From Candidatus Babeliales bacterium (GTDB lineage: Bacteria; Babelota; Babeliae; Babelales; Vermiphilaceae): a stretch of DNA of 64,000 bases. Location: the NCBI GenBank assembly GCA_963743635.1, contig CAVUQO010000002.1, forward strand, positions 384,001 through 448,000, read 5' to 3'. Position numbers and translations under genes: made by a program. The notes under the pieces were generated by a model. It made no database searches and was not told the origin of the DNA. It saw only the letters and a program-made list of their open reading frames with translations. Of this stretch, positions 8,892-61,950 are shown in pieces. Every line of letters begins with the position of its first letter. Position 1 is the stretch's first letter.

Positions 8892-9770
8892 TTATTCCTT
8901 GTTGCTCTTGAGTGCATTGCAGCGTTCTGTAATTGCCGTAGTCAAAAGAGAAGACATTTTGTCCACTAAATGATTCACGCTTTCGTTATGAGCGAGTAAT
9001 TCTTCAAGACTAAGAGTTTTTTGTGGAGCCTGACTACTTGAGGAACCATTGTTGGGTGCAGTAGCAACAGGTGCTGCAGAGGTTGCAGTTGGCTGAGCAT
9101 TATTGTTGTTATTATTCTTTTTTGCAGGAATCATTGCTTGCAATACGAGTGCATCACGTTGCATTTTGAGGTTCGCAAGTTGTACTTTGAACATAGTCAT
9201 TTGAAGAAGTTCCAAAAGTTGTTGCTTTTCTTCTTCAGGCGTTAGTTTCTTTGTTTACTGTTTTGCTTCTCGTGGTGCTTGCGAACTTTCTCCTTTTTCC
9301 ATATTGGTAGGCGCTCGCGTTGTTTTCAGTTGGAGGAGTTTGTCTCTGCGTGTGGTATTGCTATTTTTGAAAAATTCCCGCGTCGTTCTTCGAAGCTCTT
9401 TGGCCACGAGGGAATACGCTTGAGCGAGATATTGTCCATTTTCGTTAATTAATTGTGCTGTTTCTTCGCTTGTGTCAACACCTGCTGCGGCGATCATTGC
9501 GGAGGTAGTGGATAGTATAGATTCTGCACGTGTGGATTGCTCACGCAAGGGGGTAGCCTCGATTGAACCTTCTGGAGAAAATAGTGTTATTAGTTCGAGG
9601 TTTCTTTGGATCGCGATTGCTTGCAGGCATTGGAGGGTGAGCCGTAGCTGCATGGAATCGGACATTACTTCTTGCGGTGCTTGTAAAATTTCGCCTTTTT
9701 CCATAGCGCGCATGGAAGAAGTGCTGAGAAGAATGAGCAGAGATAATGATAATAGGCGTGCGTGTTTCAT
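8892..9770 (-). pseudogene. Secreted helical protein split by one in-frame TAA (9255-9257)
   Basis: ORFs 9255-9770 and 8892-9215 are in the same frame: ...REAKQ*TKKLTPEEEKQQLLELLQ...; signal peptide ends SMRA|MEK. Confidence 0.6.
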
Positions 9771-9944
9771 GGTTTTTCCTTCATGAATATCTTGTACTAT
9801 GTTGGTTGTTTTGCGTGTCTAGTGTAACAGAGAGTGATTTGTTTGTGTAGCAAGATGGTTGTTGTTTTGCGCTTTTATTATCCAAGCACTTGTATCATGA
9901 CGCTGGTATAGCGATTCTGACTTTGTCCATAGCGGGATTTCATT

Positions 9945-10090
9945 TTTCCGTCCTGATCGAAGGCCCAGAGGGGCCAAAGTTGAAGGATGATAAGGATATA
10001 AATAGGTGTTCGAATCCTTCAACAGCGCTCGCCCTTCGACCCTTCGACAGGCTCAGGGCTCAGGGGCTGCTTCGCTCAGGACGAACAGAG
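9945..10090. repeat. REP-like cluster (CCCTTCGACAGGCTCAGGG...CTCAGGACGAAC)
   Basis: Inverted REP-like arms with nested modules. Confidence 0.7.
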
Positions 10091-10135
10091 ATTGTTCGTA
10101 TACTTGTTTCATGAAGTTGATATCAGATATCCTGG

Positions 10136-10521
10136 TTAATGCGAACTGGATCTAAGAAGCGTTCATTACGAGATGGTGTTTTTATTATAAAAATAAGTAA
10201 AATTTCCTCCTCCGTTCGTCTCGAGTGATGCTATCCAGAACGTAGTGAGGGAGAGCATTGTGCGAGAGATATTAATCAGATAAATCCCTTTTTTAAAGGA
10301 ACGGAATGCATAGAAGCTTTATAAGGAATATTATTTTATCCACAATCTCTCGCACATTTTCCTCCATCACTATGTTCAGGATGAAAACACTCCCATGCTT
10401 CGCTAAGGCTACGCAGGGCACGCGAGACGACTGCGTCCGGCGTAGTTCCGTGAGGAACGTAGACGGAACGGGAAAGGGAATAACTTATTAAATATTAACT
10501 TTATTACGTCGAGTTCGCGTT
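10136..10521. mobile_element. MITE-like element bounded by ~18-20 bp inverted repeats, enclosing REP pair
   Basis: Left TTAATGCGAACTGGATCTAAG, right TTACGTCGAGTTCGCGTT; relatives at about 30899-31215, 58340 and 60121-60420. Confidence 0.6.
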
Positions 10522-10546
10522 GGTTAAAAAAGGATAAAGGAGATGT

Positions 10547-11014
10547 ATGCCTGGTTACAGACAACATTTAGTAGGTGGTGCAGTTGCCTATCTTTCATTG
10601 CTATTACTCTGTTCGTGGCTGAATCCAACGTTCACCACCGCGATCGAGTGGTTGGGATTTTGTTTGATTGGGTCACTGTTTCCCGATATTGATATCGGCA
10701 GTAAAGGAAGATATGTATTTTATCGTATCTTCCTTATTTTTTTACTCGTGTTTCTGGTGCGGCAAAATACCATGGCGCTCTGCCTTCTGGGCGTACTCAT
10801 GATCTTGCCGATGCTGGTTTCGCATCGTGGATTATTCCATCGATGGTGGTTTGTAACGGGATTGCCGTTTGCGGTTGCTGGGCTTTGTAGTTGTTCGTTT
10901 GCAACGTGTCAAGATGCTTTCATGCTTGATGCATTTTTCTTCGCCGCAGGCGCATTATCACATTTATATCTTGATTTAGGATTGCGCAAAATGATGCGTG
11001 TACGCTCCCGTTAA
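10547..11014 (+). CDS. Membrane-bound metal-dependent hydrolase (YdjM-like)
   Basis: H near N-terminus, FPDID, HRGLFH, SHLYLD; multiple TM segments. Confidence 0.8.
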   Translation: MPGYRQHLVGGAVAYLSLLLLCSWLNPTFTTAIEWLGFCLIGSLFPDIDIGSKGRYVFYRIFLIFLLVFLVRQNTMALCLLGVLMILPMLVSHRGLFHRWWFVTGLPFAVAGLCSCSFATCQDAFMLDAFFFAAGALSHLYLDLGLRKMMRVRSR

Positions 11015-11550
11015 TGAGATTGGTTGGATTTTGACATACGCAGGGTTAATGTTGCGCAGTAAGAAGATTCAGCTGGTATTGCCTGAGAAGGTTCTCTGCG
11101 TGAGTATGCGGAATCACCAAAATTTACGTTGGTCACTTCTTGATCCATATTCACGGTAACCTCGCGCGTTACGGATTCCTCGACGGGTTTGAGACGCATG
11201 ATCGTGTGCATGTAATGGCACTGGCATTTGATATTCGCTGCATTTTCATTGATTGCAGTAACCGTTACTATCGCTGTTGCTCCCGGTATCGTTAATGTTT
11301 TTGTCGAAGGGAGTAACGGATTTATCAATTTTCCATCTTGAGTAGGAAAATATAATCTTTGACTATCCCTGCCGTGTTTTGCACTCAAGTAAGCACCGAT
11401 AAATATCATCGCGTTGGCTTGTTTTTGAGTGTCAGCGGGAATGCTCGTGTTGCTTGAGGCATCATCCATTGCTTGGAGTGCAAAGGGGAATAGTAAGATA
11501 ATTGAGAATGTCATTCTGAGTGATGCCGTAGACATGTATCGAAGAATCAT
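11011..11550 (-). CDS. Secreted beta-rich hypothetical protein (array-like member)
   Basis: Signal peptide ending LQA|MDD; alternating hydrophobic strands. Confidence 0.7.
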   Translation of the reverse strand: MILRYMSTASLRMTFSIILLFPFALQAMDDASSNTSIPADTQKQANAMIFIGAYLSAKHGRDSQRLYFPTQDGKLINPLLPSTKTLTIPGATAIVTVTAINENAANIKCQCHYMHTIMRLKPVEESVTREVTVNMDQEVTNVNFGDSAYSRREPSQAIPAESSYCATLTLRMSKSNQSH

Positions 11551-11621
11551 GGGAGCCCTTTTTATAGTGAGGTAAAAAACTTGCAGCATCTTAGCACAAA
11601 AATAAGTTCCTGCAAAATCTA

Positions 11622-13031
11622 TTATTTTTTAGCACTTGAAGAAGCCGATACCAAGTACAGCGCAATAAAGCCGGCGATAAATCCAGGAATGAGTGGTAAA
11701 TGATTGAGCCAGAGGCCAGTTGAGGGCCAGATTGCTGCCGTTAAGCCACCAGCTAAGATACTTGCAAGTGCTCCATAGCGATTGACGCCTGTGCCGTAGA
11801 GTGATGCAATCACGAACGGGCCAAATGAGCTGCCGAGTCCGGACCATGCATAGTTTACCAAATTCATCACCGTCGTACTTTCTTCCCACGCAATACACAG
11901 CGCAATGCCTGATACCACTAATGCCGCGCAGCGAGATACGAAAATAAGTTGTTTTGAAGTGGCATTCTTTTTAAACCATTGCCCATAAATATCTTCTGCA
12001 ATTACCGATCCTGAGATCAGGATATGACTATCCATGGTGGAAAGCGTTGCAGCGAGAATGCCGCAGAGTGCAAATCCGGCGATAAGCGGTGGGAATAATT
12101 CTTTTGCCATGAAAATGAAAATGAGTTCATTATTCGCCATCTCTGGATAATAGGCAACGCCAATAATCCCAATGAATACAGCCGCGAGGAGTACCATGAT
12201 TTGCCACGATATACCAATGCGTTTTGCGTATTTGATTTTAGTAACATCATCGATTGCCATGAAATTCACTAGAATGTGCGGCTGACCAAAATAACCAAGA
12301 CCCCAGCCCAGTGCAAGCAAGAGACCGCTCAATAAATCGGTCTGTGTCGCCGCAAGGTTAAACGATAATCCTTTTGCGTAGAATGCGTCGCTAATGATAT
12401 TCCAAGAACCAAGTTTGATATAAGCAGCAACGGGTACCAACACGATCATGGCGAGTAAGAACATGCCTTGAAAAAAGTCACACCATGCAACGGCAATAAA
12501 GCCGCCAATGAGTGTGTAGAGTGCGGCACACGTTAAGGCGAGTATGATTCCTTGTTGATATTCTAATCCTAATCCAGCTTTAAAGAGCCATCCAAGACCA
12601 ACGAGTCCTGACGCAATATAAAAGGTAAAAAAGAGCACGGTCATGAGTGCGCTCACGAGGCGAATCATGCCGGACGTGTCATTAAATCGGTGTTCAAAAA
12701 ATGATGAGAGGGTAAGGCTGTGATATTTTTCAGTTGCCATGCGTAGTTTTGGCGCGATGTATTGCCAGTTAAGATACATACCAATTACGAGTCCGATTGG
12801 CATCCATGCTGCGGTTAACCCCTTCATATAAACCCAAGAGGGCACCGCGAGAAAGAGATATGCTCCCATATCGGTTGCCTGAGTAGCAACGGCAGTGACC
12901 CAATAATTGATGGATCGATTGCCAAGCATAAATTCTGAAGACGTAGCTTTATTGTGCCAAGAGACCATTAAGCCGATCAGCGTAAGGGCACAAAAATAGA
13001 TGATAAACGCAGTTACAATAAGAGTATCCAT
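11622..13031 (-). CDS. putP: Sodium/proline symporter (SSS family)
   Basis: GWGLGYFGQPHIL, AWSGLGSSFGP, about 13 TM segments. Confidence 0.9.
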   Translation of the reverse strand: MDTLIVTAFIIYFCALTLIGLMVSWHNKATSSEFMLGNRSINYWVTAVATQATDMGAYLFLAVPSWVYMKGLTAAWMPIGLVIGMYLNWQYIAPKLRMATEKYHSLTLSSFFEHRFNDTSGMIRLVSALMTVLFFTFYIASGLVGLGWLFKAGLGLEYQQGIILALTCAALYTLIGGFIAVAWCDFFQGMFLLAMIVLVPVAAYIKLGSWNIISDAFYAKGLSFNLAATQTDLLSGLLLALGWGLGYFGQPHILVNFMAIDDVTKIKYAKRIGISWQIMVLLAAVFIGIIGVAYYPEMANNELIFIFMAKELFPPLIAGFALCGILAATLSTMDSHILISGSVIAEDIYGQWFKKNATSKQLIFVSRCAALVVSGIALCIAWEESTTVMNLVNYAWSGLGSSFGPFVIASLYGTGVNRYGALASILAGGLTAAIWPSTGLWLNHLPLIPGFIAGFIALYLVSASSSAKK

Positions 13032-13104
13032 AAAGACCTCATAGGTTTATAGGAAAATATTTTTTTTAATAGGGCAAGATTAGGTATTAGGAAAAGGGTA
13101 CCCG

Positions 13105-13176
13105 TTAGGGACGGGATACGCAAGGCCTTGCTTGAATGGGGCAAGAGATAAGAAGAAGCGCGATGGCATACTTCAT
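13105..13176 (-). pseudogene. 5' remnant paralog of the 13240-13725 gene
   Basis: MKYAIALLLISCPIQARPCVSRP*RVPF resembles neighbour MKHGITLLLLISCTTHTAPSGSRPQPVPL. Confidence 0.6.
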
Positions 13177-13239
13177 AAAGAACCTTTCCTAACTTGGAAA
13201 TAAAAACAACATCATTTTAGCAGATTGAGAGGAGTATGG

Positions 13240-13725
13240 CTATTGTTTTTGAAATACTGAAATCCTATCTGCCAGAATCCTGAGTGTACAGGATAGGTGA
13301 GGGAGAACTCTTTCAAATGAGGTGCCGTCTTGGGCTAAGTAATCGAATGTCACCATTTTAGCTTCTTGTATCACTTCAATTCCCGATTGAGTTCTTTTTT
13401 GTATGGAGTACATGATGGTTAGGATTGATTTTAGGGAAAGGGGAAGTTGTACGCGCTGGTCTGGATTAAAAGAGAGATTTGCCGATTCTATATTTACGCT
13501 ATACCTATCATAGGGTTGTGGCGGCTTTTGGGCGGGTTTGAGCGTATTATCATTAAGATCAATATAAGAATATTTTCCGGTATAAATCGTGTCCTGGGAG
13601 TCATTGTCTACGAGAGTTGGTGTGACATATAGGTATTGTAAGGGCACGGGTTGGGGGCGTGAACCAGATGGCGCAGTGTGTGTGGTGCAAGAGATGAGCA
13701 GAAGGAGGGTGATACCGTGCTTCAT
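13240..13725 (-). CDS. Secreted beta-rich hypothetical protein (array member)
   Basis: Signal peptide; shared strand pattern. Confidence 0.75.
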   Translation of the reverse strand: MKHGITLLLLISCTTHTAPSGSRPQPVPLQYLYVTPTLVDNDSQDTIYTGKYSYIDLNDNTLKPAQKPPQPYDRYSVNIESANLSFNPDQRVQLPLSLKSILTIMYSIQKRTQSGIEVIQEAKMVTFDYLAQDGTSFERVLPHLSCTLRILADRISVFQKQ

Positions 13726-13884
13726 AACTATTTCATCCTAAAGAGTGTCCATAACAAACTTATTATGATTTTATGTGAAAATATAACGCTAGTGAGTATA
13801 GCAGTCTCGATACTTTTTGTAAGAAGGTCGGGCGATATAATGAATTTTAATTCGTTATATGTTTAACCATTGGAGAGAAATTGG

Positions 13885-14346
13885 CTAGTTTTCGAGCGGT
13901 TGGACGACTAAGAGCTTTCTCGTGTTTTTTATTGAGATCTCGAGATCTATCTTTTGCCCGTCATGGACTACAGTATCGGAGTGGTCTTCCGTACGATTAT
14001 GACCCACTTTAAATAATTTTTGCTCAGAATAGAGACGAGTGGAATCATTGCGGTCACCTTTTCTCAGGGAGTATTTTACGAGCATTTCTGAAAATCTCTT
14101 GTCTAGTGTTATGCTTACTATTTTAGCAGTGAGAAAGTAGTCACTTGTTTGGGGTTCCGTTTGCCATCCTTGGAGTTTGAGTTCGTCATTAACCACTCTG
14201 TGATATACCTCTTGATTGTAGAGAACCTGCTTGCTCGATAAAATTTGTGTAGCGATTGTATATTCTTGTTCTATTTCTGTTTTTATTTCCATAGCATTGA
14301 GCATGAAGGGCGTGCATAGAAATATCAGGGACAGTATGTGTATCAT
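13885..14346 (-). CDS. Secreted beta-rich hypothetical protein (array member)
   Basis: Start MIHILSL at 14346; signal ends LNA|MEI. Confidence 0.75.
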   Translation of the reverse strand: MIHILSLIFLCTPFMLNAMEIKTEIEQEYTIATQILSSKQVLYNQEVYHRVVNDELKLQGWQTEPQTSDYFLTAKIVSITLDKRFSEMLVKYSLRKGDRNDSTRLYSEQKLFKVGHNRTEDHSDTVVHDGQKIDLEISIKNTRKLLVVQPLEN

Positions 14347-14419
14347 GATGAACCTTTTGTGGCTGTGAATAGTAAATAATGCTTTATTATAGCATGTTTT
14401 TGCCATCATGTGAATAATC

Positions 14420-14539
14420 TCAAGTAAAAACCGGACCTGATAGTTTCTCAGATTCCATTGCATTGAGTGCAAGGGGTCCCGTCGAAAAGCTGAGGATAAG
14501 GATGATCGGGATGGGGAGGGTGCGAGTCCGCAGATTCAT
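14420..14539 (-). pseudogene. 39-aa signal-peptide-only remnant or micro-protein
   Basis: MNLRTRTLPIPIILILSFSTGPLALNA|MESEKLSGPVFT* with AAGGA RBS. Confidence 0.5.
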
Positions 14540-14553
14540 AAATAATCCTTTAA

Positions 14554-15020
14554 TTAATTCTCTTTATCCAATATCAGGTGCTCTGCTTTAATCACTGCTA
14601 AGTATTGTGTATATGATGATTCTTGAGCTATACCAATGGTAAGTTCTTCTCCGAAGGGAACGGTGATCGTTGCGGAATTCACCTCTTTTGGACATAAGTT
14701 CGAAATTGTTTTGCTTAGCTCCCATACATTCTTACTACAGCCTGGTTGGATTCATCTTCATCGATGGACTCCATGCAGCGGACGAGGTGTGGTGAGAAAA
14801 AAAGTGTGAGAATCAGGCCCTTCGACAGTATTCCTACAGGGCTCAGAATGAGCGGGAAAGTAATGATATTTTTGAAAGACATGATAATTTTTTCGTTGTT
14901 AGATTTGTGTTTCCTGCGCTTTTTTCAAAAGTAGCTTTATGGTAAGTATATGTTTAATTGCAGCTGTTGGGTAGGGATTTTCTTGTATTCCCCAATGTAA
15001 ATGGATGCCCCAAATTCATA
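14554..15020 (-). pseudogene. Decayed array member with REP insertion (~14817-14857)
   Basis: C-terminal frame ...WELSKTISNLCPKEVNSATITVPFGEELTIGIAQESSYTQYLAVIKAEHLILDKEN* resembles array C-termini; upstream part has stops and a CCCTTCGACA...CTCAGAATGAGCGG REP. Confidence 0.5.
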
Positions 15021-15034
15021 ATAATCATCCTTAA

Positions 15035-15556
15035 TTAAAAACTTACTGTTTGTTTAATGCTCATGATGAATTTTTCATTATCCAATGATATGAATTGCGT
15101 GTGTGGATCGCGTTGCAATAAATTAATATCCATCATTACTGGCGCGGTCTTTTGAGAAGCGGCTTCAGGATCAGTCGTTGTCTTGAGGAGAGAATATTGG
15201 AGTATGATTTTTTGAAACAATGCGCGCCAATCGCGTTGATTCACTTTGCTTCCATCGGTAATCAATTTCAAGAGTTTTGTTTGCACACCATATTCTTGAG
15301 ATGCTTGCGGCACATCGGCGTCAGTGAGGTTACGTGTGGCATACCTCGAGTCATGCGAATAAATCCCATAGGTGTGAGTATGATCATAGAGCAGTGTCTG
15401 TTCTTCTTGTTGCCTACACACGGTGATCGCGAGCGCGATGGTTATAAGAGGTTTTTGAGGGGGCATTGCGGGTTTAGAAATTCTTAGACCTGCATGCACA
15501 TGAGATATGAAAAATAATCCATGCATGACAGGAATAATGAGAGCTTTTTTAATCAT
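15035..15556 (-). CDS. Secreted beta-rich hypothetical protein (array member)
   Basis: Signal ends VHA|GLRISK. Confidence 0.75.
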   Translation of the reverse strand: MIKKALIIPVMHGLFFISHVHAGLRISKPAMPPQKPLITIALAITVCRQQEEQTLLYDHTHTYGIYSHDSRYATRNLTDADVPQASQEYGVQTKLLKLITDGSKVNQRDWRALFQKIILQYSLLKTTTDPEAASQKTAPVMMDINLLQRDPHTQFISLDNEKFIMSIKQTVSF

Positions 15557-15702
15557 AACAATCCTTATTATAAAAATCAGATCCATTGCAGACCCGATCC
15601 AGGGTAATGATTGTCTGCCAAGTGGGTCAAGAGTTTAGTCTTGCTGCGTAAAATTTACCGCATTAGGCCTTTGTTACAGTCTTTTCATCGTTTCAGAAGA
15701 AA

Positions 15703-16173
15703 TTATTTTTTGATGGTGCTTTGAATGGTTACCTGTATCGGCTGGCCGAATTCATCGTGCATCGATAATGGATATGTTTTGGCACTTGAGGCATTAAGGG
15801 GAATTTTTATTGTGCCAACAGCCGATGGGCCTTCTACTTTTTTTACTTTGCATTCGAATTCGGCATAGCCTGTATCGCGATCGACTTCTTGGAGTTCTAT
15901 TTCTAAATTATAACTTTCGGTATCTTGATGGCCAGCCAAGAGCCCGCCAGTTGTAGGCACTAAGGTATCAGATTGTCCTTTGAAATATAGAAATCTTGCA
16001 ACGCTGCGCGTGCCATTCTTTTGAGGAATTTTCATTTCAGCAACGATATTCATTTGCGATGGCAGAGAATGTAACATGAGAGAGTTGAATGCACGCATCG
16101 CTGCATTGTCATAACGCTGCATTGCATGGCTGACAGCGGGAAGTAATAATAGGAGTGCTAAAAAATGTCTCAC
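15703..16173 (-). CDS. Secreted beta-rich hypothetical protein (array member)
   Basis: GTG start after AAGGA; signal ends SHA|MQR. Confidence 0.75.
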   Translation of the reverse strand: MRHFLALLLLLPAVSHAMQRYDNAAMRAFNSLMLHSLPSQMNIVAEMKIPQKNGTRSVARFLYFKGQSDTLVPTTGGLLAGHQDTESYNLEIELQEVDRDTGYAEFECKVKKVEGPSAVGTIKIPLNASSAKTYPLSMHDEFGQPIQVTIQSTIKK

Positions 16174-16390
16174 TAATTTTCCTTGGTTCTTAACATATTG
16201 AAGAATAAATGCTATATAAACTCGATTTATAGTATCAAAGTAGACATTTTTATTCAATGATTAGGAGGAAATAGACCTTTATATATTCATAGTATGACTT
16301 AGAAAATGAATGCGATTTACAATGGCCTTATATTGTAATCGAAAAAAAGTATTTAAATGTTATGAAGATATCTTAATGAAAGAATAACTA

Positions 16391-17431
16391 ATGAAAAAAT
16401 CACTATCAATACTGGTATTAGCACTTGCAATATCAGCGAACGCATACGCAGCAGAAGTAAGTACCTTCAGTGAACATGCGATCATATTCTCAGGCAATGC
16501 AACGAAAGAGTTGGCGCAAAGTATAGCGGACTACTTGGGAGTCAATCTAGGTTCGGCGATCGTATCAAAATTTAATGATGGAGAAATCCAGATCCAGGCG
16601 CAGGAAAGTGTGCGGGGTAAGGATGTCTTTATCGTGCAATCAACCTGCCATACTGTAACCCAAAGCGTGAATGATAACTTGATGGAATTATTCTTGCTCA
16701 TTCGTACTATGAAGCGAGCATCGGCCGCAAGCATTACAATCGTTATCCCCTACTATGGTTATGCACGGCAAGATCGCAAAGCGATGTCTCGCGTGCCAAT
16801 TTCCGCAGCGGACGTTGCAATGATGTTAGAAGAAGGTGGTGCCGATCGCGTGTTAACGATCGATTTACACTGCGGACAAATTCAAGGGTTTTTCCGTAAT
16901 GTACCGGTTGACAACTTATTCTCATCGCCGATTTTTATCGACTATTTTGTAAACAAACAACTCGATAACGTGGTGGTGGTTTCTCCCGATGCAGGCGGCG
17001 TGGATCGTGCGTATAAGTTTGCACAACAATTGCGCAAAAAAGGCGTACCTGCTGAAATGGCGCTCATTAGCAAACGTCGCGCAAGCGCGGGCGTCATTGA
17101 ATCGATGTATTTGATTGGTGATGTGAATGGCGCTGATGCGATTATTGTTGATGATATTTGTGATACGGCAGGAACGCTAGTCAAGGCTGCGCAATTGCTC
17201 AAAGATAATGGTGCGCGTCGCGTGTTTGCGGTCATTCCGCACGGAGTCTTTTCGGGCAATGCACTCGATAAGATTCGTAAATCAGTGATTTGCGAAATGG
17301 TGATTGCAGATACCGTTCCATTGCGCGAGCAAGCGCCAGACAATCTCGTCGTTCTTTCAGTGAGTAAGTTATTGGGCGATGCGATATTGCGCATTTATAA
17401 CGGCAATTCGGTATCTGCATTGTTTGACTAA
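16391..17431 (+). CDS. prs: Ribose-phosphate pyrophosphokinase with N-terminal signal-peptide-like extension
   Basis: FNDGE, PYYGYARQDRK, DLHCGQIQGFF, VSPDAGG, DDICDTAGTL; N-terminus MKKSLSILVLALAISANAYA|AE. Confidence 0.95.
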   Translation: MKKSLSILVLALAISANAYAAEVSTFSEHAIIFSGNATKELAQSIADYLGVNLGSAIVSKFNDGEIQIQAQESVRGKDVFIVQSTCHTVTQSVNDNLMELFLLIRTMKRASAASITIVIPYYGYARQDRKAMSRVPISAADVAMMLEEGGADRVLTIDLHCGQIQGFFRNVPVDNLFSSPIFIDYFVNKQLDNVVVVSPDAGGVDRAYKFAQQLRKKGVPAEMALISKRRASAGVIESMYLIGDVNGADAIIVDDICDTAGTLVKAAQLLKDNGARRVFAVIPHGVFSGNALDKIRKSVICEMVIADTVPLREQAPDNLVVLSVSKLLGDAILRIYNGNSVSALFD

Positions 17432-17545
17432 CCCTTCGTGACAGCCTGAGGGTGCCGTAAGTCATCTTACTCCGCATCCTTCCGTCTTCGCCCCGGTCAT
17501 CCTGAGGCCCGAAGGGATCGAAGGACGTCGGACTACGTCGTCACA
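17431..17545. repeat. Nested REP-like cluster
   Basis: CCCTTCG, TCATCCTGAG...TCGAAGG modules. Confidence 0.65.
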
Positions 17546-17644
17546 TTTTTCATATCACGTCCTTCTCTGCGCTGCGGAATGTTATAATAAACCCCCAGGA
17601 TTAATCGTCCTGGGCTTTTCTATTAACGCGAACTATAGTGTTTT

Positions 17645-18154
17645 TTAATGTAGATATTCTGAGCTTGGATATATTTCTATGCGTAGTAAAAAAGCGTCAT
17701 AACCACGTTCCTGGAATCTTTCTTCATGCTGAATTTTAGATTGCGCATGCAACGGAAGCACTATAGATTGTGCCTGGTGCAGGATAACAGGTTCATCATT
17801 TTCTTTTCTTTTGCTGAGTGCATATTGCAGCGCAGCGTTTCGAGTAGTTGGGCATATCCCGAGCTTTACTTCTGCGCTATAGGTATAGTTTTGGTTGTCT
17901 TCCCCATTTTCTGTTGGGTCAGATTTTCCTGGGTTATCGGCATTCATTAAATAGCCTTTTTCTTTATAGAGCGTAGGTCGCAGAGCATCATCGACAGTGT
18001 ATTGTGACATCTTTATAAAAAAATCTTCTTGAGTCTTCTCATTGATCAGATGCACTGACATGACAAGGTGCTTTATAGCACCTGGTGGAGAGCTCTTGGG
18101 CCCCGCTTCAAGCGTCAAGGGCAAGAGTAGCAGTAATCGAGCAATATGTGTCAT
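17645..18154 (-). CDS. Secreted beta-rich hypothetical protein (array member)
   Basis: Signal ends LEA|GPKSS. Confidence 0.75.
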   Translation of the reverse strand: MTHIARLLLLLPLTLEAGPKSSPPGAIKHLVMSVHLINEKTQEDFFIKMSQYTVDDALRPTLYKEKGYLMNADNPGKSDPTENGEDNQNYTYSAEVKLGICPTTRNAALQYALSKRKENDEPVILHQAQSIVLPLHAQSKIQHEERFQERGYDAFLLRIEIYPSSEYLH

Positions 18155-18312
18155 GAACTTCCCTTTTTAAAGCACTATGAACATGTCCGATTGAGCATTA
18201 TAGATGAGCTCGGATGGTTACACAAGTAAATGCGGGATAAGGAGCATGCAAAGTGCCATTCTAAAAGCTGCACGCAGCTCTGATTGCATTGAGTAATCTT
18301 CTTTTTGAGAGC

Positions 18313-18780
18313 TTAAGGAAGAGCTTTTACTTGGTATTTTATTGCTGCAGACCCATCATCATGATTTTTACATACGCTTAATAATTCTATTAAATACTTC
18401 TTAGATTGAATCGTGGGATCACGAGGCAATGTAGAGCAGGTGATTGCTTGAGGTTTATTATGCTTCCTCTCATGGTCAATAAGGTCTATGAAAAGAGATG
18501 TGAGCCCATTCGTGCGTATAAAATCATGACCGTAAAGATCCATGGTGACTTGTGCTGCGGTGATTATGAAATCATCAACATACGGAACGGGCATTTCGAG
18601 TGCTGCTCTTTCCGCCATTGGTCCAGGCCTTGGTGCTGGTTGATCTTTACCAGCCATAACGGTGAGTGGAAAAAGCAAGCAGAGCATGGCGAGTGAAAAT
18701 ATATTATTCATCCTGAGTAATGCGGTACGCATGTATCGACTGCGTCCGACGAAGTTTTTAAATGTAGACGGAAGGGTCAT
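18313..18780 (-). CDS. Secreted array member, C-terminally short, with in-frame REP insertion at 5' end
   Basis: Signal ends VMA|GKD; 69-bp REP between ATG 18780 and ATG 18711. Confidence 0.65.
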   Translation of the reverse strand: MTLPSTFKNFVGRSRYMRTALLRMNNIFSLAMLCLLFPLTVMAGKDQPAPRPGPMAERAALEMPVPYVDDFIITAAQVTMDLYGHDFIRTNGLTSLFIDLIDHERKHNKPQAITCSTLPRDPTIQSKKYLIELLSVCKNHDDGSAAIKYQVKALP

Positions 18781-18819
18781 GGGATCCTTATTGTTCGGTC
18801 CGTGGTGATAATGAGATTT

Positions 18820-19383
18820 TTAATCAATGAGTTGTTGGTAGGCGTTAATCATGAGTATAACCGTATCTCGAGGGATTAGATGGTCCAGTTCGGTTTCAAT
18901 GATACATACATGCATTGCCTCAGGACCAATATCTAAATGTATCGCATCGTATTTATTCACATTGACTGCATCACTTCTGGCAATTATGGTGCGGTCAGGG
19001 TTAACGTTTACCGTTGTGATAGCAAGTTGTGTGTTGAGGATATAGTCGCAATATACTTGATAATTCGATTGATCTACATCTATTGCCGATGTTTTGACCG
19101 TATATTTTTCGCGCCATGCAGCTATCTTGCGTTCAGCATTATCGGCATGAATTTTTCTTTTATCGTCATTACTATCAAGATGAAATTCATCGTAACATTC
19201 GAATGTATCATCGTGGTTGCGGCGATAGTATGCCTGATGGGAAAAGATTGTTTCGCGCGTGGTGGTATTGATAAGCGCCGATGCGATTACTATTTTTGCA
19301 AGAGGGGGTGCGGATGGAAGCCCCGCTTCCATTGCATTAAGCGCAAGAGAAAAGAGCAACAGAGGTGCGCATATTTTTTTCAT
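18820..19383 (-). CDS. Secreted beta-rich hypothetical protein (array member)
   Basis: Signal ends LNA|MEA. Confidence 0.75.
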   Translation of the reverse strand: MKKICAPLLLFSLALNAMEAGLPSAPPLAKIVIASALINTTTRETIFSHQAYYRRNHDDTFECYDEFHLDSNDDKRKIHADNAERKIAAWREKYTVKTSAIDVDQSNYQVYCDYILNTQLAITTVNVNPDRTIIARSDAVNVNKYDAIHLDIGPEAMHVCIIETELDHLIPRDTVILMINAYQQLID

Positions 19384-19479
19384 GAAAACCTTGTGAATGA
19401 AAAGTATTAATACAACGTGACAAGTTTATCACAATTTAATGCGTCATAAAAGTGAATTGTGCTGATGTGTAATACAAAA

Positions 19480-19989
19480 TTAGTCGATCGTTTCTACACT
19501 ATCATCATCGGCAAGGGACGTCATAGCGATATCATTCTCGTTTCTTATATTGATGAGTGAAACTTTGAATTTTAAGAGCATGTCATCATCTAATTTTGTG
19601 GTGACTGTGCGACCAAATTTGATTTCTATAGGGTACTCTTTGGGCATAGCGCCTTTACCCAATCGTACCCAACAGCTTAATGACGCAGTTTTTTCTGCTT
19701 GATTGAAGGTAGCATTCTCGATGGTGATGCGATTATCTTTAATAACTATCTCGCGCGGGGTCTCTATTTTTGTATAAGTATCATTATCGTTGTACCTATA
19801 GTTGTGACACTCCTGTGAAATTACCTGTCCACTGCGTGCAGCGCAGAGTGCTGCGTCAATACGTAAGTCTTTGTTCTTGGTGCACATACAAGGCATGCAG
19901 GCCGTGAGTATTGTTAATATGGACGTACACGGTCCAGGTATCGTGAGTAAGGGGTGTATGACGCATAGTAGGGCTATAAGACGTTTCAT
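19480..19989 (-). CDS. Secreted beta-rich hypothetical protein (array member), Cys-rich N-terminus
   Basis: AAGGAG RBS; hydrophobic leader followed by GPCTS...CMPCMC. Confidence 0.75.
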   Translation of the reverse strand: MKRLIALLCVIHPLLTIPGPCTSILTILTACMPCMCTKNKDLRIDAALCAARSGQVISQECHNYRYNDNDTYTKIETPREIVIKDNRITIENATFNQAEKTASLSCWVRLGKGAMPKEYPIEIKFGRTVTTKLDDDMLLKFKVSLINIRNENDIAMTSLADDDSVETID

Positions 19990-20019
19990 GATTTCTCCTT
20001 TTTTTAGTAAAATAACCCC

Positions 20020-20571
20020 TTAAGGATTACGATTATTCGAAATGGTTAATTCAACTTTGCGTTTGGTATCATCGGTGATGTCTAGTTTAAATGTCATTGA
20101 AAAATCGGTATGCAATGGCACTTCCACCTCTTTTTCGATGATGTGCTCGGTTGCGTACGTTTTTGTTATACATCGAATGATCACCGATTTTGAAGATTGA
20201 CCGAGTAAGCTGAGCTCTGCTTCATGGAGATATGAGGAAGGCTCAATGGTGGTTAATCTATCGGGGGTGACAACCAAAGAAGAATCATTTTTTGTTAAAT
20301 ATAAATGTTTGGCAATAGAGTGGAGGGTAGTCTGTGTTTGTGGTTGTGCACCGATTACTATTTCATTCGTGTACTGATTGCGGGCATAAGATCCTGGCAC
20401 AATACGTTTCACATAAAATTCAAGTACCGCGCTAATGCGTATTGCTGATGGAAGATCTGTTAGAAGCGATACGCTATCTGTGGTTGGAATTTTAGGGTGT
20501 GGGCGGGACATGCAAGCTCCTGCCGCAAGCAGCATTGGACATGCTGCGAACGCTAAAATAAGACGTTTCAC
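20020..20571 (-). CDS. Secreted beta-rich hypothetical protein (array member)
   Basis: GTG start; signal ends LAA|GACMSR. Confidence 0.75.
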   Translation of the reverse strand: MKRLILAFAACPMLLAAGACMSRPHPKIPTTDSVSLLTDLPSAIRISAVLEFYVKRIVPGSYARNQYTNEIVIGAQPQTQTTLHSIAKHLYLTKNDSSLVVTPDRLTTIEPSSYLHEAELSLLGQSSKSVIIRCITKTYATEHIIEKEVEVPLHTDFSMTFKLDITDDTKRKVELTISNNRNP

Positions 20572-20670
20572 GATCCCCCCTTTTTCCATTCTCATTGTTC
20601 CCTTGCATAGAAGGCTAGCACAAAGTGGATGGATAAAAAAAGATAAAGCGTCTTAGAGGCAGTTTTCGTG

Positions 20671-21160
20671 TTAAGAGTTGTTATTCATATGCTTATCATC
20701 GTGCGGGATTGACCAGGTATCATCTTGAATGGGCAGCGGTGCAAAGCTTACCTGTTTAATGATGCGTGGCCTGACCGCCTCATTGATTGGGGATAATGAG
20801 AATCGGACATACTTGGTCGGGTCTGCGGGATATGATTTGACGATGTTTTGCATGCCAAACATAATATGAGCCATCACGAGGGTGGGTTTATTGCTGCCCG
20901 TTGGTATATCATATTCAATTGCTGCATACCGAGCTTTATGATAGATCGTACACTTTTTTAAGGTGATTTTATGCTGCGTGTGAGATAAATCGTTCGATGT
21001 ATAATTACCTTGGTCATCCACAGTATAGACTGTGTGTTCTACCGCTTCTCCCGTCTCCGCTTCCTATTACACAAATAGATGCAGTCAAGTGCATGATATC
21101 TGGCCCAGCGATAATTGATAATGGATATGTCATAAGCAGCATAATAAGACGATGGTTCAT
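20671..21160 (-). pseudogene. Array member with frameshift near 21020
   Basis: MNHRLIMLLMTYPLSIIA|GPDIMHLTASIC...HSLY continues in another frame as VDDQGNYT... Confidence 0.65.
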
Positions 21161-21359
21161 AGTTTTCCCTCCACAATTACAGTATTCCCAAAAAAGGAGG
21201 GTAGCAGAATTGCTTATAATAAAAAAAGGGAATGCGTTTTTGGTACACATTCCCTGAATAGATAGGTCGTTTTTTTAACGGTTATTATTACCTGCATTAT
21301 CATTCGTTATAGAATCTATCCCAAAATTAATTTTTGACATGAAAATGAAAGGTTTTTCA

Positions 21360-21405
21360 TCTCCGTTACCCATTCGATACGCTTCGCTACTCAGGGCGAA
21401 CGGGG
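21360..21405. repeat. REP-like unit
   Basis: TACCCATTCGATACGCTTCGCTACTCAGGGCGAACGG, identical core at about 58529-58565. Confidence 0.8.
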
Positions 21406-56577: not shown

Positions 56578-57015
56578 ATGAATAAACAGTTGTTAATCGG
56601 TAGTTTGATGCTTTTGCCAGCAGGGCTTAACGCAATGTGGACGCCTTATCACAACCCAGGCACCGTCGAAAGCATGAGAGCCATTGTAGATAAACAGGTT
56701 GCAGATGCAAGATTCCACGCGGAAATGATGGCTCGCCAAATTCATGCTCAAAAGCAGATGACGTTAGAAATCGCAGCGGAACAGCAGGCTGCTCAAGCTG
56801 CCCAAACAGTTGCGCCACATGCTACAGCACAATCAATTGCGCCTACGCAATCAGCAGAGTCTATTGCAGCTGCGGAAGCCCTGTCGAAAGCAATGAACGA
56901 GCGCAGACTTGCTATACAAAGTGGGCAATACGTTTTACCAAAAGATGATCTCACTCCAGAGCAAATGGAGGCGCGAGATATAGCCCATGGATATGGTTAT
57001 TGTTATCAAAAATAG
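56578..57015 (+). CDS. Secreted small protein, leader-array member 1
   Basis: LLPAGLNA|MWT. Confidence 0.8.
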   Translation: MNKQLLIGSLMLLPAGLNAMWTPYHNPGTVESMRAIVDKQVADARFHAEMMARQIHAQKQMTLEIAAEQQAAQAAQTVAPHATAQSIAPTQSAESIAAAEALSKAMNERRLAIQSGQYVLPKDDLTPEQMEARDIAHGYGYCYQK

Positions 57016-57042: not shown

Positions 57043-57612
57043 ATGAAAAGATTAATGATCGCATTAGCATTGTTGCCAGCAGGGCTTAACGCAATGTGGA
57101 CGCCTTATCACAACCCAGGCACCGTCGAAAGCATGAGAGCCATTGTAGATAAACAGGTTGCAGATGCAAGATTCCACGCGGAAATGATGGCTCGCCAAAT
57201 TCATGCTCAAAAGCAGATGACGTTAGAAATCGCAGCGGAGCAGCAAGCAGCTCAACCAGCGCCAGCGCAACCGGAACCAGCGGCAGAGGCTCCTTATTCT
57301 GTTGAGCATTTAGAGGGTGGTCCTATATCGCAAGTAAGATATTACAGTGATCGCCATGAAGTCCAGATGAGGGATGGAACTATACGCACAGCTTACAATG
57401 ATATGAGCCGCCATGGTGCTCCTGTTCGTGTTGTGAAAAATCCTCCACATGATCCAGGTGCAATAAAAGCTGCTATTATTCAAGGAATCGGTCTGAATCC
57501 TGAAACAGAAACCAAATACTACGCAGATGGGACCGTTGAACACTGTTTTGATGGCACAAAAGAAATAAGATATTATGCAGACGGACGCTCTGAAACAATA
57601 TCAAGAAAATAA
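57043..57612 (+). CDS. Secreted small protein, leader-array member 2
   Basis: Shares 167 bp with member 1; C-terminal YYADG repeats. Confidence 0.8.
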   Translation: MKRLMIALALLPAGLNAMWTPYHNPGTVESMRAIVDKQVADARFHAEMMARQIHAQKQMTLEIAAEQQAAQPAPAQPEPAAEAPYSVEHLEGGPISQVRYYSDRHEVQMRDGTIRTAYNDMSRHGAPVRVVKNPPHDPGAIKAAIIQGIGLNPETETKYYADGTVEHCFDGTKEIRYYADGRSETISRK

Positions 57613-57635: not shown

Positions 57636-57869
57636 ATGAAAAGATTATTGATCGCGTTGGTATTGTTGCCAGCAGCTCTTCGTGCGATGGATTATTCGGA
57701 TAAGAAGGCTTTGAATAAAGCGGTGCAGCAATGTAATCCAGGCAGCCAGAAACAAGCAGAAGAATGGAGCAGGCTTGCTATAGAAAGAGCGGCTGCACAC
57801 AAGCAACAAATGGAACAGCGCCAAAGACAAATTGAGCAAGAAAAGTATAGACACGGCATGAATCAATAA
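57636..57869 (+). CDS. Secreted small protein, leader-array member 3
   Basis: MKRLLIALVLLPAALRA|MDY. Confidence 0.75.
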   Translation: MKRLLIALVLLPAALRAMDYSDKKALNKAVQQCNPGSQKQAEEWSRLAIERAAAHKQQMEQRQRQIEQEKYRHGMNQ

Positions 57870-57919: not shown

Positions 57920-58075
57920 ATGAAAAAGCTATTATTGATTGCGTTGGCATTCTTGCCAGCAGGCCTTAAGGCAATGGGCACTTTATCAGCGGTAGACAAG
58001 GCTATTATAGACCAAGCCAGGAAAGCTCAAGCTCAACCCAAGCCACAACCGCAACAACAACCACCAAAAAAATAA
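57920..58075 (+). CDS. Secreted 51-aa protein, leader-array member 4 (below ORF-track cutoff)
   Basis: MKKLLLIALAFLPAGLKA|MGTLSAVDKAIIDQARKAQAQPKPQPQQQPPKK; AAGGA RBS. Confidence 0.75.
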   Translation: MKKLLLIALAFLPAGLKAMGTLSAVDKAIIDQARKAQAQPKPQPQQQPPKK

Positions 58076-58086
58076 AGGAAACGAAT

Positions 58087-58272
58087 ATGAAGAAACTATT
58101 ATTGATTGCATTGGTATTGTTACCAGCAGGCCTTAAGGCAATGAGCGGTGCCGGGATGGGGCCAGGCGTGCAAGAGCATATACAAGAGCAACTACGAAAA
58201 CAGGCAGAAGCGCAAAGACGGCAGCAAGAAGCATTAAGAAAGCAGCAAGAAGCACAAAAATCCAGGAAATAA
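58087..58272 (+). CDS. Secreted small protein, leader-array member 5
   Basis: MKKLLLIALVLLPAGLKA|MSG. Confidence 0.75.
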   Translation: MKKLLLIALVLLPAGLKAMSGAGMGPGVQEHIQEQLRKQAEAQRRQQEALRKQQEAQKSRK

Positions 58273-60120: not shown

Positions 60121-60420
60121 TTAACGCGAACTCGATGTAAGGAATTGATAGTAAGTGATGTTTTCTCTTATAAAAATAAATAAAAATCCCCTCCCCCGTT
60201 CCGTCTACGTTTATCCGGGCCTTCCGGCTCGGCAAACTACGCCGGACGCAGTCGTCCCGCGTGCCCTGCGTAGCCTTGGCGAAGCATGGGAGTGTTTCTA
60301 TCCTGATCCTGAGCTTTATGCGAAGGAGAAAGGGAGAAATGTGCGAGAGATTGTGGATTAATAATATTCCTTATTTTTTTAAGATGAAAGCCTAATGTGA
60401 TAGGTTTGCTTAGATCGAGT
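60121..60420. mobile_element. MITE-like/nested REP composite
   Basis: Left TTAACGCGAACTCGATGTAAG, right CTTAGATCGAGT; internal block shared with 31034-31134. Confidence 0.65.
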
Positions 60421-60476
60421 GGGTGTACTGATTTACTTTTTGGCGCCTTTGAATAATACTCAAAGGCGTTATTTGT

Positions 60477-60652
60477 TTTTTATTCTAGGTCGCGATAAAC
60501 CACATGCTTTAGCGTGTGGATGAAAGCGAATAGAATAACCCGGCGAAGCAAAATACTTCCTGAGGTATAACTTCGAAGTATTGGCGAAGCCTGGGTATTT
60601 CATTAAGTTCAGCGCGATACAACGAGTTTTAATCCGTTGAGCGCTTTATCAT
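60477..60652 (+). mobile_element. ~170-bp multi-hairpin element, copy 2
   Basis: Inverted near-copy of 38180-38352. Confidence 0.75.
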
Positions 60653-60670
60653 AGATAAGGAGGATCTCCT

Positions 60671-61447
60671 ATGATTTCAATCAATCGCACTGCGCTCACG
60701 CTCATTATGCTCGCATCATGCATCGGCTTTAACACCGTGTGTGAAATGGCAAAAGAGGCGCGGGAAAAAGGGTTTGTGTATCTGCATGAAGTGGATCCGA
60801 CCATTCAGGTTTCACTCCGTTATTATGGCAATGAAAATTTTCTGGGGCGCACGGTGAAGGGCTATAAAAAACCAGTCCTGATGATGACGCGGCAGGCAGC
60901 GCAGGCGTTACAGAAGGTGCAGCAGGACGTCAAAAAAGATGGGTATAGTTTGCTCGTGTATGATGCATACCGCCCGCAACAAGGCGTCGATAACTTCATG
61001 AGTTGGAGCATAGACGTTAATGATCAGGTGCGAAAGCATCAATACTACCCACGCGTCGATAAAGCTCGTGTATTTGAGTTGGGGTACGTAGCCGAACGCT
61101 CAGGGCACACCAGAGGCAGCACCGTTGACCTTACGCTCATCAAAGATGGCGAACCGATTCATAACATCGTAGAAAAAAAACGTACGCTCTTGGACGGATT
61201 TACCATCACATTCCTCGACGATGGTTCGGTTGACATGGGTTCATCATTTGATCTTTTTGACGTGGCATCCCATTTTGAAAATGATCTGATTCCTGCAGAA
61301 TTTAAAAAAATAAGAACGTATTTGCGTGATGTGATGGTCAAGCATGGGTTTAAGACAGTTCCGGAAGAATGGTGGCATTTCACATTAAAAGATGAGCCGT
61401 ACCCAGCGACGCGCGATAGCAGTTATTTCAACTTTCCGATTGAGTGA
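60671..61447 (+). CDS. ddpX: D-Ala-D-Ala dipeptidase (M15D, VanX/DdpX family)
   Basis: YDAYRP, SGHTRGSTVDLT, DMGSSFD, EEWWHF; signal peptide. Confidence 0.92.
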   Translation: MISINRTALTLIMLASCIGFNTVCEMAKEAREKGFVYLHEVDPTIQVSLRYYGNENFLGRTVKGYKKPVLMMTRQAAQALQKVQQDVKKDGYSLLVYDAYRPQQGVDNFMSWSIDVNDQVRKHQYYPRVDKARVFELGYVAERSGHTRGSTVDLTLIKDGEPIHNIVEKKRTLLDGFTITFLDDGSVDMGSSFDLFDVASHFENDLIPAEFKKIRTYLRDVMVKHGFKTVPEEWWHFTLKDEPYPATRDSSYFNFPIE

Positions 61448-61506
61448 TGATTGATATACTGAGGAGGCGCTTACAACGAGCGCCTTGTTAAATGAGGAGT
61501 AAAAAT

Positions 61507-61950
61507 ATGAAAAAAATAGTAAGCGTAGTTCTGATAAGTGCGCTGTGCAATCAATGCATGTATGCAATGGATGGCAAGAATTCACCGCACGTAGGCATTC
61601 AAGTAGGGTGCTGTAATTGGGCGGGATTAGCCGCTGGTCTGGGTGCGATACATGAAGATCACGCGTCGCGGCCTATTATTGTCCGTCGGGAAGCAAAAGA
61701 AGAAAATGAACAGTCGCGTACACCGGAACTGATTAGGATGGCATCTTCATTAGCAGCTGGTTTGGTTGAGATACGGCAAAATCGTGTTTTGGCACCAGCG
61801 GCATTAGAAGTGCAGATCCCAAATCTTGCGAGCGTAGCAGCTACGCCAGAGCACCGATCAGAAGAGGATGAATGGGATTTTTCGATTGCCCTAGATCTGG
61901 ATGAATCGGGTTCCGATTGGGTGACGGTGGGTGGAGAAAAAAAGGAATAA
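61507..61950 (+). CDS. Secreted hypothetical protein with acidic W-containing C-terminus
   Basis: Signal ends MYA|MDG; GAGGAG RBS; tail EEDEWDF...SDWVTV. Confidence 0.7.
   Translation: MKKIVSVVLISALCNQCMYAMDGKNSPHVGIQVGCCNWAGLAAGLGAIHEDHASRPIIVRREAKEENEQSRTPELIRMASSLAAGLVEIRQNRVLAPAALEVQIPNLASVAATPEHRSEEDEWDFSIALDLDESGSDWVTVGGEKKE

Follow-up and report, generated by a model that had tools for sequence, protein, structure and literature searches.

The question raised by this locus is why so many of its predicted secreted proteins would start with a methionine once the export leader is removed. The window, by which is meant the whole stretch of 64,000 nucleotides that was analysed, is C2:384001-448000 of the three-contig, 1,454,283-base assembly (G000, ~42% G+C) of a Candidatus Babeliales bacterium. 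An earlier note, made from the sequence of this stretch, had drawn attention to 17 open reading frames (ORFs) in which a small-residue cleavage site is followed directly by Met. We find that Met at the first mature position (+1) is in large excess in the genome as a whole, that it is usually followed by Asp, Glu, Asn or Gln (D/E/N/Q), and that the ribosome-binding site (RBS), the leader and the Met codon are common to genes with unrelated payloads. The reading that we prefer, and to which we give about an even chance, is that these elements form a modular, recombining export unit (RBS, leader and Met, usually then D/E/N/Q), which is lineage-specific, kept by selection and carried by host-directed proteins.

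Leader-like N-termini and cleavage sites were scored by simple rules of our own, not by SignalP, and the scoring is heuristic throughout. Our gene calls in G000 comprise 1471 genes, of which 785 (53%) have a leader-like N-terminus; a packaged version of the same rules gives 1473 and 786, respectively.

Leader followed by methionine in the window

Direct reading of the 17 ORFs confirms the junction in every one of them: an n-region with Lys or Arg, an uncharged hydrophobic core of at least 8 residues, a short polar stretch, small-x-Ala/Ser and then ATG. The leaders are 17-27 amino acids (aa) long, the -1 residue is Ala in 16 of the 17 and Ser in one (49135), and the count of 12 with D/E/N/Q at +2 is reproduced. 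A purine-rich, AGGA/GGAG-like stretch lies a few bases 5' of nearly every leader start; single coordinates, here and in the earlier note, are those of the leader start codons. Three more cases are found in the window, at 22592(-) with MMA/MQD, at 47618(+) with SES/MTS and at 63932(+) with AWG/M, the last being cut by the window end (a slash marks the predicted cleavage site). The description of the ORFs as mostly unrelated was overstated, as the 17 fall into only about eight leader groups; among these are five genes in a row at 56.5-58.3 kb and some of the members of an array of 13 genes at 9.2-22.6 kb, and 56578 and 57043 are near-identical, 36539 and 37204 homologous. Three are very short (14539, 39 aa; 57920, 51 aa; 58087, 61 aa). 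The carriers and the related features of the window are as follows.

9255..22592, minus strand: 13-gene array of small secreted proteins with the common leader type M-K/R-H..LLLLLP....A, as seen by alignment
9255..9770, minus strand: 171-aa ORF, 22-aa leader ...SSMRA/MEK, Met codon 9702-9704, no Pfam family
11011..11550, minus strand: 179-aa ORF, leader ...FALQA/MDD, Met codon 11467-11469, no Pfam family
13885..14346, minus strand: 153-aa ORF, 18-aa leader ...FMLNA/MEI, Met codon 14290-14292
14420..14539, minus strand: 39-aa ORF, probably a truncated copy, leader ...LALNA/MES
15703..16173, minus strand: 156-aa ORF with a GTG start, 17-aa leader ...AVSHA/MQR, Met codon 16120-16122, no Pfam family
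18820..19383, minus strand: 187-aa ORF, 17-aa leader ...LALNA/MEA
22065..22592, minus strand: 175-aa ORF absent from the earlier list, ...ITMMA/MQD, last gene of the 13-gene array
31298..31669, plus strand: 123-aa ORF, 21-aa leader ...ASLFA/MDA, with a C3 paralogue that has an identical junction
36246..36539, minus strand: 97-aa ORF, leader MKILKLMALVALVGYSASVLA/MNS, in an eight-member leader family with five unrelated payload groups
36887..37204, minus strand: 105-aa ORF, ...SSALA/MTA, of the same leader family as 36246..36539
37568..37936, minus strand: 122-aa neighbour of 36887..37204 with a like leader and Val, not Met, at +1 (QAIVA/VTQ)
46669..47454, plus strand: 261-aa ORF, ...HHARA/MDE
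47618..48508, plus strand: PAP2-family membrane protein, ...YVSES/MTS, which may be an uncleaved signal anchor
48575..49135, minus strand: 186-aa ORF, 21-aa leader ...TTAYS/MER, the lone Ser at -1
56578..57015, plus strand: 145-aa ORF, ...PAGLNA/MWT
57043..57612, plus strand: 189-aa ORF, ...PAGLNA/MWT, N-terminal part near-identical to that of 56578
57636..57869, plus strand: 77-aa ORF, leader family as 57043, ...PAALRA/MDY, payload unrelated to that of 57043
57920..58075, plus strand: 51-aa ORF, leader family as 57043, ...PAGLKA/MGT
58087..58272, plus strand: 61-aa ORF, leader family as 57043, ...PAGLKA/MSG
61507..61950, plus strand: 147-aa ORF, 20-aa leader ...QCMYA/MDG, no Pfam family

Two other genes, for a symporter and a PRPP synthase-like protein, interrupt the 13-gene array, the payloads of which are 10-19% identical.

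Excess of methionine at the predicted +1 position

Counted directly, by the rule [AVSTGCIL]-x-[AGS]/M with a hydrophilic stretch after it, 166 of the 785 leader-like genes of G000 are carriers, which is 9.8x background; 188 genes are found when Met is permitted also at -3, and 222 when the hydrophilicity filter is omitted. About one gene in eight of this genome thus encodes a leader-then-Met protein. In the same count, Cys at +1 (lipoproteins) is at 3.6x and the remaining residues are at 0.8-2.3x background. The excess is also seen with a cleavage-site picker that is blind to +1, being based on the change-point of hydrophobicity: Met is then the top +1 residue, in 105 of 573 leaders (18%), versus a background of 2.16%. 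(An iterative weight matrix for the cleavage sites was dropped, because it settled on the hydrophobic core instead.) When [AGS]-M-[DENQ] with its Met between residues 16 and 33 is counted in G000 without filtering, and the rate beyond residue 60 is taken as the expectation, there are 160 cases versus 21.3 expected. That Met at +1 might be no commoner here than in ordinary bacteria, as the earlier note had allowed, does not agree with the Escherichia coli K-12 control (5 x 50 kb, 250 kb in all), where one of 86 leader-like genes has Met at +1 and the filter-free count is 3 versus 3.9 expected.

The position of these residues is also particular. When no rule is imposed, the Met residues behind the hydrophobic core (n = 599) are preceded by Ala, Gly or Ser in 50% of cases, versus 18-32% for other residues, and they are most frequent 6-8 residues past the core. 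The number of carriers is not accounted for by paralogy, because the 166 make up 135 blastp clusters when their mature parts are compared. Their clustering along the genome is only modest: 79 of the 188 adjoin another carrier, and 500 shuffles gave 45 on average and at most 80.

The residue at +2 is D/E/N/Q in 69% of the 188 carriers (63% of the 222), the four commonest residues being Gln (22%), Glu (18%), Asp (18%) and Asn (11%). The same four residues occupy position 2 in 20% of 127 cytoplasmic-type genes having an ATG supported by a Shine-Dalgarno (SD) sequence, and the background is also 20%. It can be argued that the context of the Met is selected and not merely inherited, because this preference is absent at genuine starts.

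Sec-type leaders and their start codons

Sec leaders are cut by signal peptidase I (SPase I) according to the -3/-1 rule. The leaders of the Met class (n = 175) have a median length of 22 aa and a net charge of +2 in the n-region, and at their sites the residues from -6 to -4 are polar (S/A/T/G/Q/N), followed by L/A/M/V/I at -3, H/L/F/Y/Q at -2 and Ala in 71% at -1. They look like ordinary, classical Sec/SPase I leaders, with a predicted cleavage that would fall right before the Met. A lipobox with Cys is not seen in the Met class, where only 2 of 188 proteins have a Cys within +1 to +3, and neither is a twin-arginine (Tat) motif, as only 2 of the 188 leaders have RR ahead of the hydrophobic core.

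The codon at the boundary between leader and payload is always ATG, and this would be accounted for if the internal ATG were an alternative start, from which a leaderless cytoplasmic isoform is made beside the exported protein. The RBS pattern is different: an SD-like core is found 5' of the leader start in 57% of the 166 carriers and 5' of the +1 ATG in 2.4%, the latter value being below the 5% found at internal ATGs in general. Other start codons are not enriched among the Val and Leu codons at +1, where GTG accounts for 26% versus 25% in the background and TTG for 20% versus 19%. Therefore, the internal ATG is unlike a start site. The eukaryote-type payloads would moreover have no obvious role inside the bacterium, and we regard dual initiation as very improbable.

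Leaders on unrelated payloads

The 188 carriers include 103 pairs whose leader ends are at least 60% identical, and in 36 of these pairs (34 genes) the payloads have no similarity, with Smith-Waterman z<4 versus shuffles and a blastn payload match in one of the 36. When these 36 pairs are anchored at the ATG, the DNA identity is 71-78% from about 15 bases 5' of the leader start up to the ATG, drops to about 50% in codon 2 and is 25-33%, as for random sequences, from +15 on. The identities at codon positions 1, 2 and 3 are 0.76, 0.85 and 0.63 in the leader and 0.26, 0.26 and 0.29 in the payload. The joint was formed by recombination, because the third positions of the leaders are 63% identical and payloads of the same age could not be random at silent sites. 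The clearest pair is C2:554208 and C2:551641, with 118 of 120 bases in common as far as the ATG and 25% identity beyond.

The same picture is obtained from individual leader families. One leader type precedes both a 799-aa AAA ATPase and a 98-aa protein encoded on the small contig C1, and another is shared by 13 WD40 proteins and an unrelated protein of 219 aa. In a tandem five-gene run at C3:458-461 kb, five unrelated payloads stand under a common leader family, and the five window leaders at 56.5-58.3 kb can be aligned over the stretch between RBS and ATG, beyond which they diverge. The earlier note had suggested, as an alternative, that genes with a start codon of their own have time and again acquired a mobile leader in front of it; this suggestion is supported in one respect, as leader units occur in families on unrelated payloads and identity ends at the ATG, and the ATG itself may or may not have been a start codon beforehand.

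That the joint lies exactly at an ATG does favour a purely historical explanation, in which the Met is the old start codon of a cytosolic-type ORF, left behind by the fusion of a leader, without function and not yet mutated in genes of fast turnover. The payload types (WD40, GNAT, zf-C2H2, RING/Ank) are cytosolic, and many carriers are young ORFans, such as the 18820..19383 protein, which has no match among 150 other Babeliales genomes (E<=1e-5). The loss of the Met with retention of the leader is also seen. Such a footprint would not account for the preference for D/E/N/Q at +2, which is found at 69% of the junctions versus 20% of genuine SD-supported starts, and the way in which the Met is retained, described next, also goes against it.

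Conservation of the +1 residue

When leaders are paired by 9 or more identities among their last 14 residues, Met stands at +1 in the partner as well in 135 of 153 cases. Between homologues with mature parts less than 35% identical, the +1 residue is conserved in 54% of pairs, which is as much as the -1 residue (56%), and the flanking positions are conserved in 21-49%. The protein encoded at 46669 and seven homologues at 46-64% identity have an invariant A-M-D in the midst of leader and mature residues that vary; this is the one family from which a usable orthologue alignment was obtained, and two of the homologues carry the precomputed family PF13857. Also a homologue of a GNAT carrier, from another source and only 27% identical, retains the junction ...SASMHA/MED.

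If the Met were a former start codon, leaderless relatives starting at this residue might be expected. The within-genome search gave no fitting leaderless homologue that starts at the aligned Met, and the homologue search with the GNAT carrier gave leader-bearing relatives only. A search of PDB sequences with two GNAT carriers gave no matches for one and only C-terminal alignments for the other. At C2:467628-468861 (-), a carrier with ...TQSYA/MQQS adjoins a leaderless paralogue of 75% identity, which starts 16-17 residues further in than the aligned Met; its upstream frame reads ...LSLSIHA, with a stop two codons before the present start, and this is probably a decayed leader. It is possible that the Met originated as the start codon of a captured gene. 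As the whole explanation of the motif this fits poorly, because of the specificity at +2, because of the retention data and because no leaderless relative starting at the Met was found, and we consider the footprint rather unlikely.

Occurrence in related genomes

The share of leader-like genes with Met at +1 was compared between G000 and other Babeliales genomes, the latter (14 genomes) sampled as ten, or as four to five, pieces of 20 kb per genome, so that these are small samples, and related genomes are not independent. The values are as follows, with the family of each genome in brackets.

G000 (f1): 166 of 786, 21.1%
G001 (f2): 24 of 110, 21.8%
G005 (f1): 17 of 99, 17.2%
G018 (f1): 13 of 102, 12.7%
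G040 (f5): 16 of 127, 12.6%
G039 (f10): 5 of 40, 12.5%
G003 (f2): 5 of 53, 9.4%
G019 (f7): 4 of 45, 8.9%
G024 (f8): 3 of 38, 7.9%
G027 (f1): 3 of 57, 5.3%
G048 (f8): 2 of 39, 5.1%
G047 (f4): 5 of 100, 5.0%
G041 (f10): 4 of 88, 4.5%
G057 (f4): 2 of 56, 3.6%
G010 (f6): 0 of 28, 0%

The filter-free excess is 10.1x in G001, 8.8x in G003, 7.5x in G000 and 4.3x in G005, and 0.6-1.7x in G010, G047, G057 and G041. In G047, G010 and G041 there is no filter-free excess, with 2 cases observed versus 2.5 expected, 1 versus 1.6 and 3 versus 1.8, respectively. The combination of leader and Met recurs in part of the sampled Babeliales (Dependentiae) genomes and not in others. A second strain seems to exist, as 84% of the sampled words occur in the sequencing run X2; no RNA run was listed for window positions 55500-59500.

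Two tandem SPase I genes are present in G000 at C3:523091-524866 (+). One of the two, a 350-aa frame, has an insertion that splits its Pfam match (residues 3-107 and 129-168), and this split type is found in about 15 other sampled Babeliales genomes. A link of the trait to the second, insertion-bearing paralogue was considered and rejected.

The presence of these two genes would fit an explanation by enzyme preference, in which Met at P1' is favoured by the SPase I of this lineage, or by its second tandem copy, and the proteome has become adapted to this preference. The Met is absent from the majority of the leader-bearing proteins of G000, those of the envelope housekeeping class included, which would not be expected in that case. 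G001 moreover has a single SPase I match and yet the highest Met share (21.8%), and G027 has the split-type enzyme and yet a share of 5.3%. We hold this explanation to be highly unlikely.

Effector-type and envelope proteins

Pfam scans were made of carriers and non-carriers encoded on C3:1-800000 and in the window (864 kb). Among the 111 Met-class proteins scanned (E<=1e-4), 73 have no Pfam family, and the matches of the others include 14 of WD40 type, eight GNAT, three zf-C2H2 and two Ank (one of these with RING), besides Sel1, DUF5092, AAA/STAND ATPases and two peptidases. The 205 leader-bearing proteins scanned from the non-Met class (107 long ones at E<=1e-8 and 98 short ones at E<=1e-4) include the classical envelope set: the secretin, DegP-like and S41 proteases, TolB-like PD40, SpoIID, M23 and M15 peptidases, BamD/YfiO, three solute-binding proteins, thioredoxins, PASTA, a transglycosylase, OmpA, an OMP barrel, SPOR, FKBP and AhpC. 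Met is at the predicted site in none of the 22 envelope housekeeping proteins inspected from this class, which is by definition free of Met, and the fair contrast is two carriers in about 24 envelope proteins in all. That the Met might be as common in periplasmic housekeeping proteins, which would have counted against the earlier note, is not borne out. The signal peptidase itself also scores as a carrier, as a false positive due to its membrane anchor.

This split between effector-type and envelope proteins is what would be seen if a bacterial factor reads the mature Met-D/E/N/Q and routes the protein over the outer membrane, by type II secretion or vesicles, so that exported effectors are kept apart from resident envelope proteins; an N-terminal Met is otherwise rare in the periplasm. 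A secretin gene is present in G000, and the +1/+2 sorting rule of lipoproteins provides an analogy. Such a sorting role is the main alternative as to why Met-D/E/N/Q would be selected. The motif is carried also by BamA and a TamB-like protein and is missing from about half of the effector-like secreted proteins, which is mildly against a strict tag. G047, G010 and G041 have no excess despite leader-bearing proteomes that are equally large, and no candidate reader protein was identified. We therefore judge a sorting tag to be unlikely.

The secreted repertoire itself has unusual members. There are 13 leader-bearing GNAT acetyltransferases in the 864 kb scanned (eight with the Met junction and five without), at C3:361538-366429 and elsewhere, several of them in one tandem cluster, and for a genome of 1.45 Mb so many secreted acetyltransferases are a large set. 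At C3:222474-228689, three leader-bearing proteins (619, 987 and 279 aa) are full of eukaryote-type C2H2 zinc fingers. A 195-aa SET-domain protein at C3:729297-729881 (-) is also leader-bearing, with the predicted junction ILA/ETND, which has no Met.

A proposed export unit kept by selection

According to the preferred reading, that of a modular export unit kept by selection, translation would begin at the start codon of the leader, the protein would cross the inner membrane via Sec, and SPase I would cut after small-x-Ala, such that the released protein would start with Met-D/E/N/Q. Recombination at the Met codon would have attached the unit to unrelated payloads. Its carriers would be mainly host-directed proteins, which include ORFans besides proteins of the WD40, GNAT, C2H2 zinc-finger and ankyrin/RING types, and it would be rare on envelope-resident proteins. 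From the specificity at +2 and the retention of the junction we infer that Met-D/E/N/Q is maintained by selection.

What the dipeptide would be selected for is suggested by the eukaryotic cytosol. N-termini with Met-Asp, Met-Glu, Met-Asn or Met-Gln are the substrates of NatB, which acts on nascent cytosolic chains, and the residues D/E/N/Q themselves are secondary and tertiary destabilising residues of the Arg/N-degron pathway. Mimicry of host N-termini, as judged from the predicted mature ends, fits both the dipeptide specificity and the bias to effector-type proteins. The most speculative part of the reading is that Met-D/E/N/Q is kept in order to provide, in the host cell, an N-terminus like that of cytosolic eukaryotic proteins, of the NatB class and not of the Arg/N-degron.

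Several observations weigh against the selected unit or limit it. In leader pairs, N, E, L, S, K or R can stand at +1 right after an identical or similar leader, and in divergent pairs the conservation of +1 is only moderate (54%). The Met is not obligatory in the 13-gene array of the window, where six members have Met at +1 and five to six have Gly. There are carriers among the envelope proteins, namely BamA (...VRG/MDEH) and the TamB-like protein (...VWS/MQND), and there are effector-like secreted proteins without the Met (GNAT 5, Ank 4, Sel1 6, LRR 1, SET 1), some with a predicted Asp or Glu at +1, which would be forbidden by strict avoidance of the N-degron. The predicted sites are noisy in the non-Met class, and the Pfam cut-offs of the two classes are unequal, being stricter for the long non-Met proteins. 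The recombination data would fit gene conversion between existing leaders just as well as they would fit new fusions. Finally, eukaryotic NatB is not known to act post-translationally on an exported protein.

A wider form of the idea can be put forward tentatively, and we think it possible and less probable than not that it holds: the first residues of the mature protein would serve as an address, in which Met-D/E/N/Q marks the host-bound set, in a compartment where proteins otherwise lose the initiator Met along with the leader, and is read either by a bacterial factor for export over the outer membrane or by the N-terminal machinery of the host (acetylation by NatB, or escape from the N-degron pathways), and new effectors would arise when the unit is recombined onto arbitrary payloads. 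That the leader-bearing GNATs are part of such an N-terminal address system is pure speculation.

The practical value of the motif is that a one-line rule (leader, small-x-Ala, Met-D/E/N/Q) picks out a large share of the predicted host-directed proteome in a phylum of protist parasites, the effectors of which are otherwise unrecognisable ORFans and for which only Sec and a type II system are reported. It also brings up a question that is seldom asked for Sec-exported bacterial effectors, namely whether the new N-terminus is relevant to export over the outer membrane or to survival in the eukaryotic cytosol. The exchange of export leaders between unrelated genes at a fixed joint, which follows from an argument in the style of a molecular clock, would be a simple route by which a cytosolic-type domain becomes a secreted one.

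Neighbouring genes

Some features of the window stand apart from the Met junction. Three of the Gly forms of the 13-gene array (GQSNSK, GLRISK and GACMSR) resemble the eukaryotic N-myristoylation consensus, which is a speculative likeness. The PRPP synthase (ribose-phosphate pyrophosphokinase) homologue at 16391-17431 (+) has a leader-like N-terminal extension of 30 residues, MKKSLSILVLALAISANA/YAAE, and its Pfam domain begins at residue 31; export of such an enzyme would be unusual. The ORFs at 57920..58075 and 58087..58272 encode Q/K-rich mini-proteins; the longer antisense ORFs that overlap them are probably not genes. At 38392-40127 (+), this reduced genome encodes an ATP-dependent DNA ligase (PF01068 and PF04679), and the upstream ORF 38392-38808 may be its N-terminal part.

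Comparison with known systems

Cultured relatives that grow in amoebae or flagellates exist, and their genomes are described in PMC6561590, PMC4378268 and PMC4776705. Passages of these papers report a signal peptide in 44% of the coding sequences (PMC6561590) and in 79 of 126 ankyrin proteins, with type II as the sole secretion system detected (PMC4378268). The proteome of G000 is, like that described in these passages, rich in signal peptides, with leaders on ankyrin, WD40 and other eukaryote-like proteins. The rule of Met at +1 and the leader families are unmentioned in the passages of PMC6561590 and PMC4378268, and the word 'methionine' is absent from the main texts of all three papers, the supplements of which may list predicted cleavage sites.

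The similarity to classical SPase I leaders extends over the charged n-region, the hydrophobic core, the polar c-region, the small or aliphatic residue at -3 and the Ala at -1. The difference is that Met dominates at +1 (in about 18-24% of the leader-bearing genes versus 1 of 86 in E. coli) and is coupled to D/E/N/Q at +2. With the NatB substrates the carriers have in common that their four commonest +2 residues are exactly Gln, Glu, Asp and Asn, if cut as predicted; those substrates are nascent cytosolic chains, whereas here the N-termini are the predicted ones of exported bacterial proteins.

Delivery motifs behind a signal peptide are known from eukaryotic parasites, namely the RxLR motif of oomycetes and the PEXEL motif of Plasmodium, the latter being cleaved to an acetylated xE/Q/D N-terminus. 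These systems resemble the present one in having a leader followed by a short motif at the start of the mature protein and a large, fast-evolving, host-directed repertoire. The present system differs in being bacterial and in consisting of merely a Met and an acidic or amide residue at the peptidase site, as known from sequence.

The closest likeness in the arrangement of the genes themselves is with the erp/ospE-ospF-elp genes of Borrelia burgdorferi (the 'upstream homology box') and the vsp/vpma genes of Mycoplasma, in which a conserved 5' region and leader precede unrelated mature parts and provide surface variation. In these families, as here, the RBS and leader are common to non-homologous mature parts and the similarity stops sharply at the cleavage site, with recombination as the likely cause. 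Their leaders are lipoprotein leaders with the lipobox Cys at +1, whereas those described here are of the SPase I type, with Met at +1 and no lipobox. Unlike in the Borrelia and Mycoplasma families, the payloads here include eukaryote-like domains, and about 190 carriers are spread over some 135 payload clusters.

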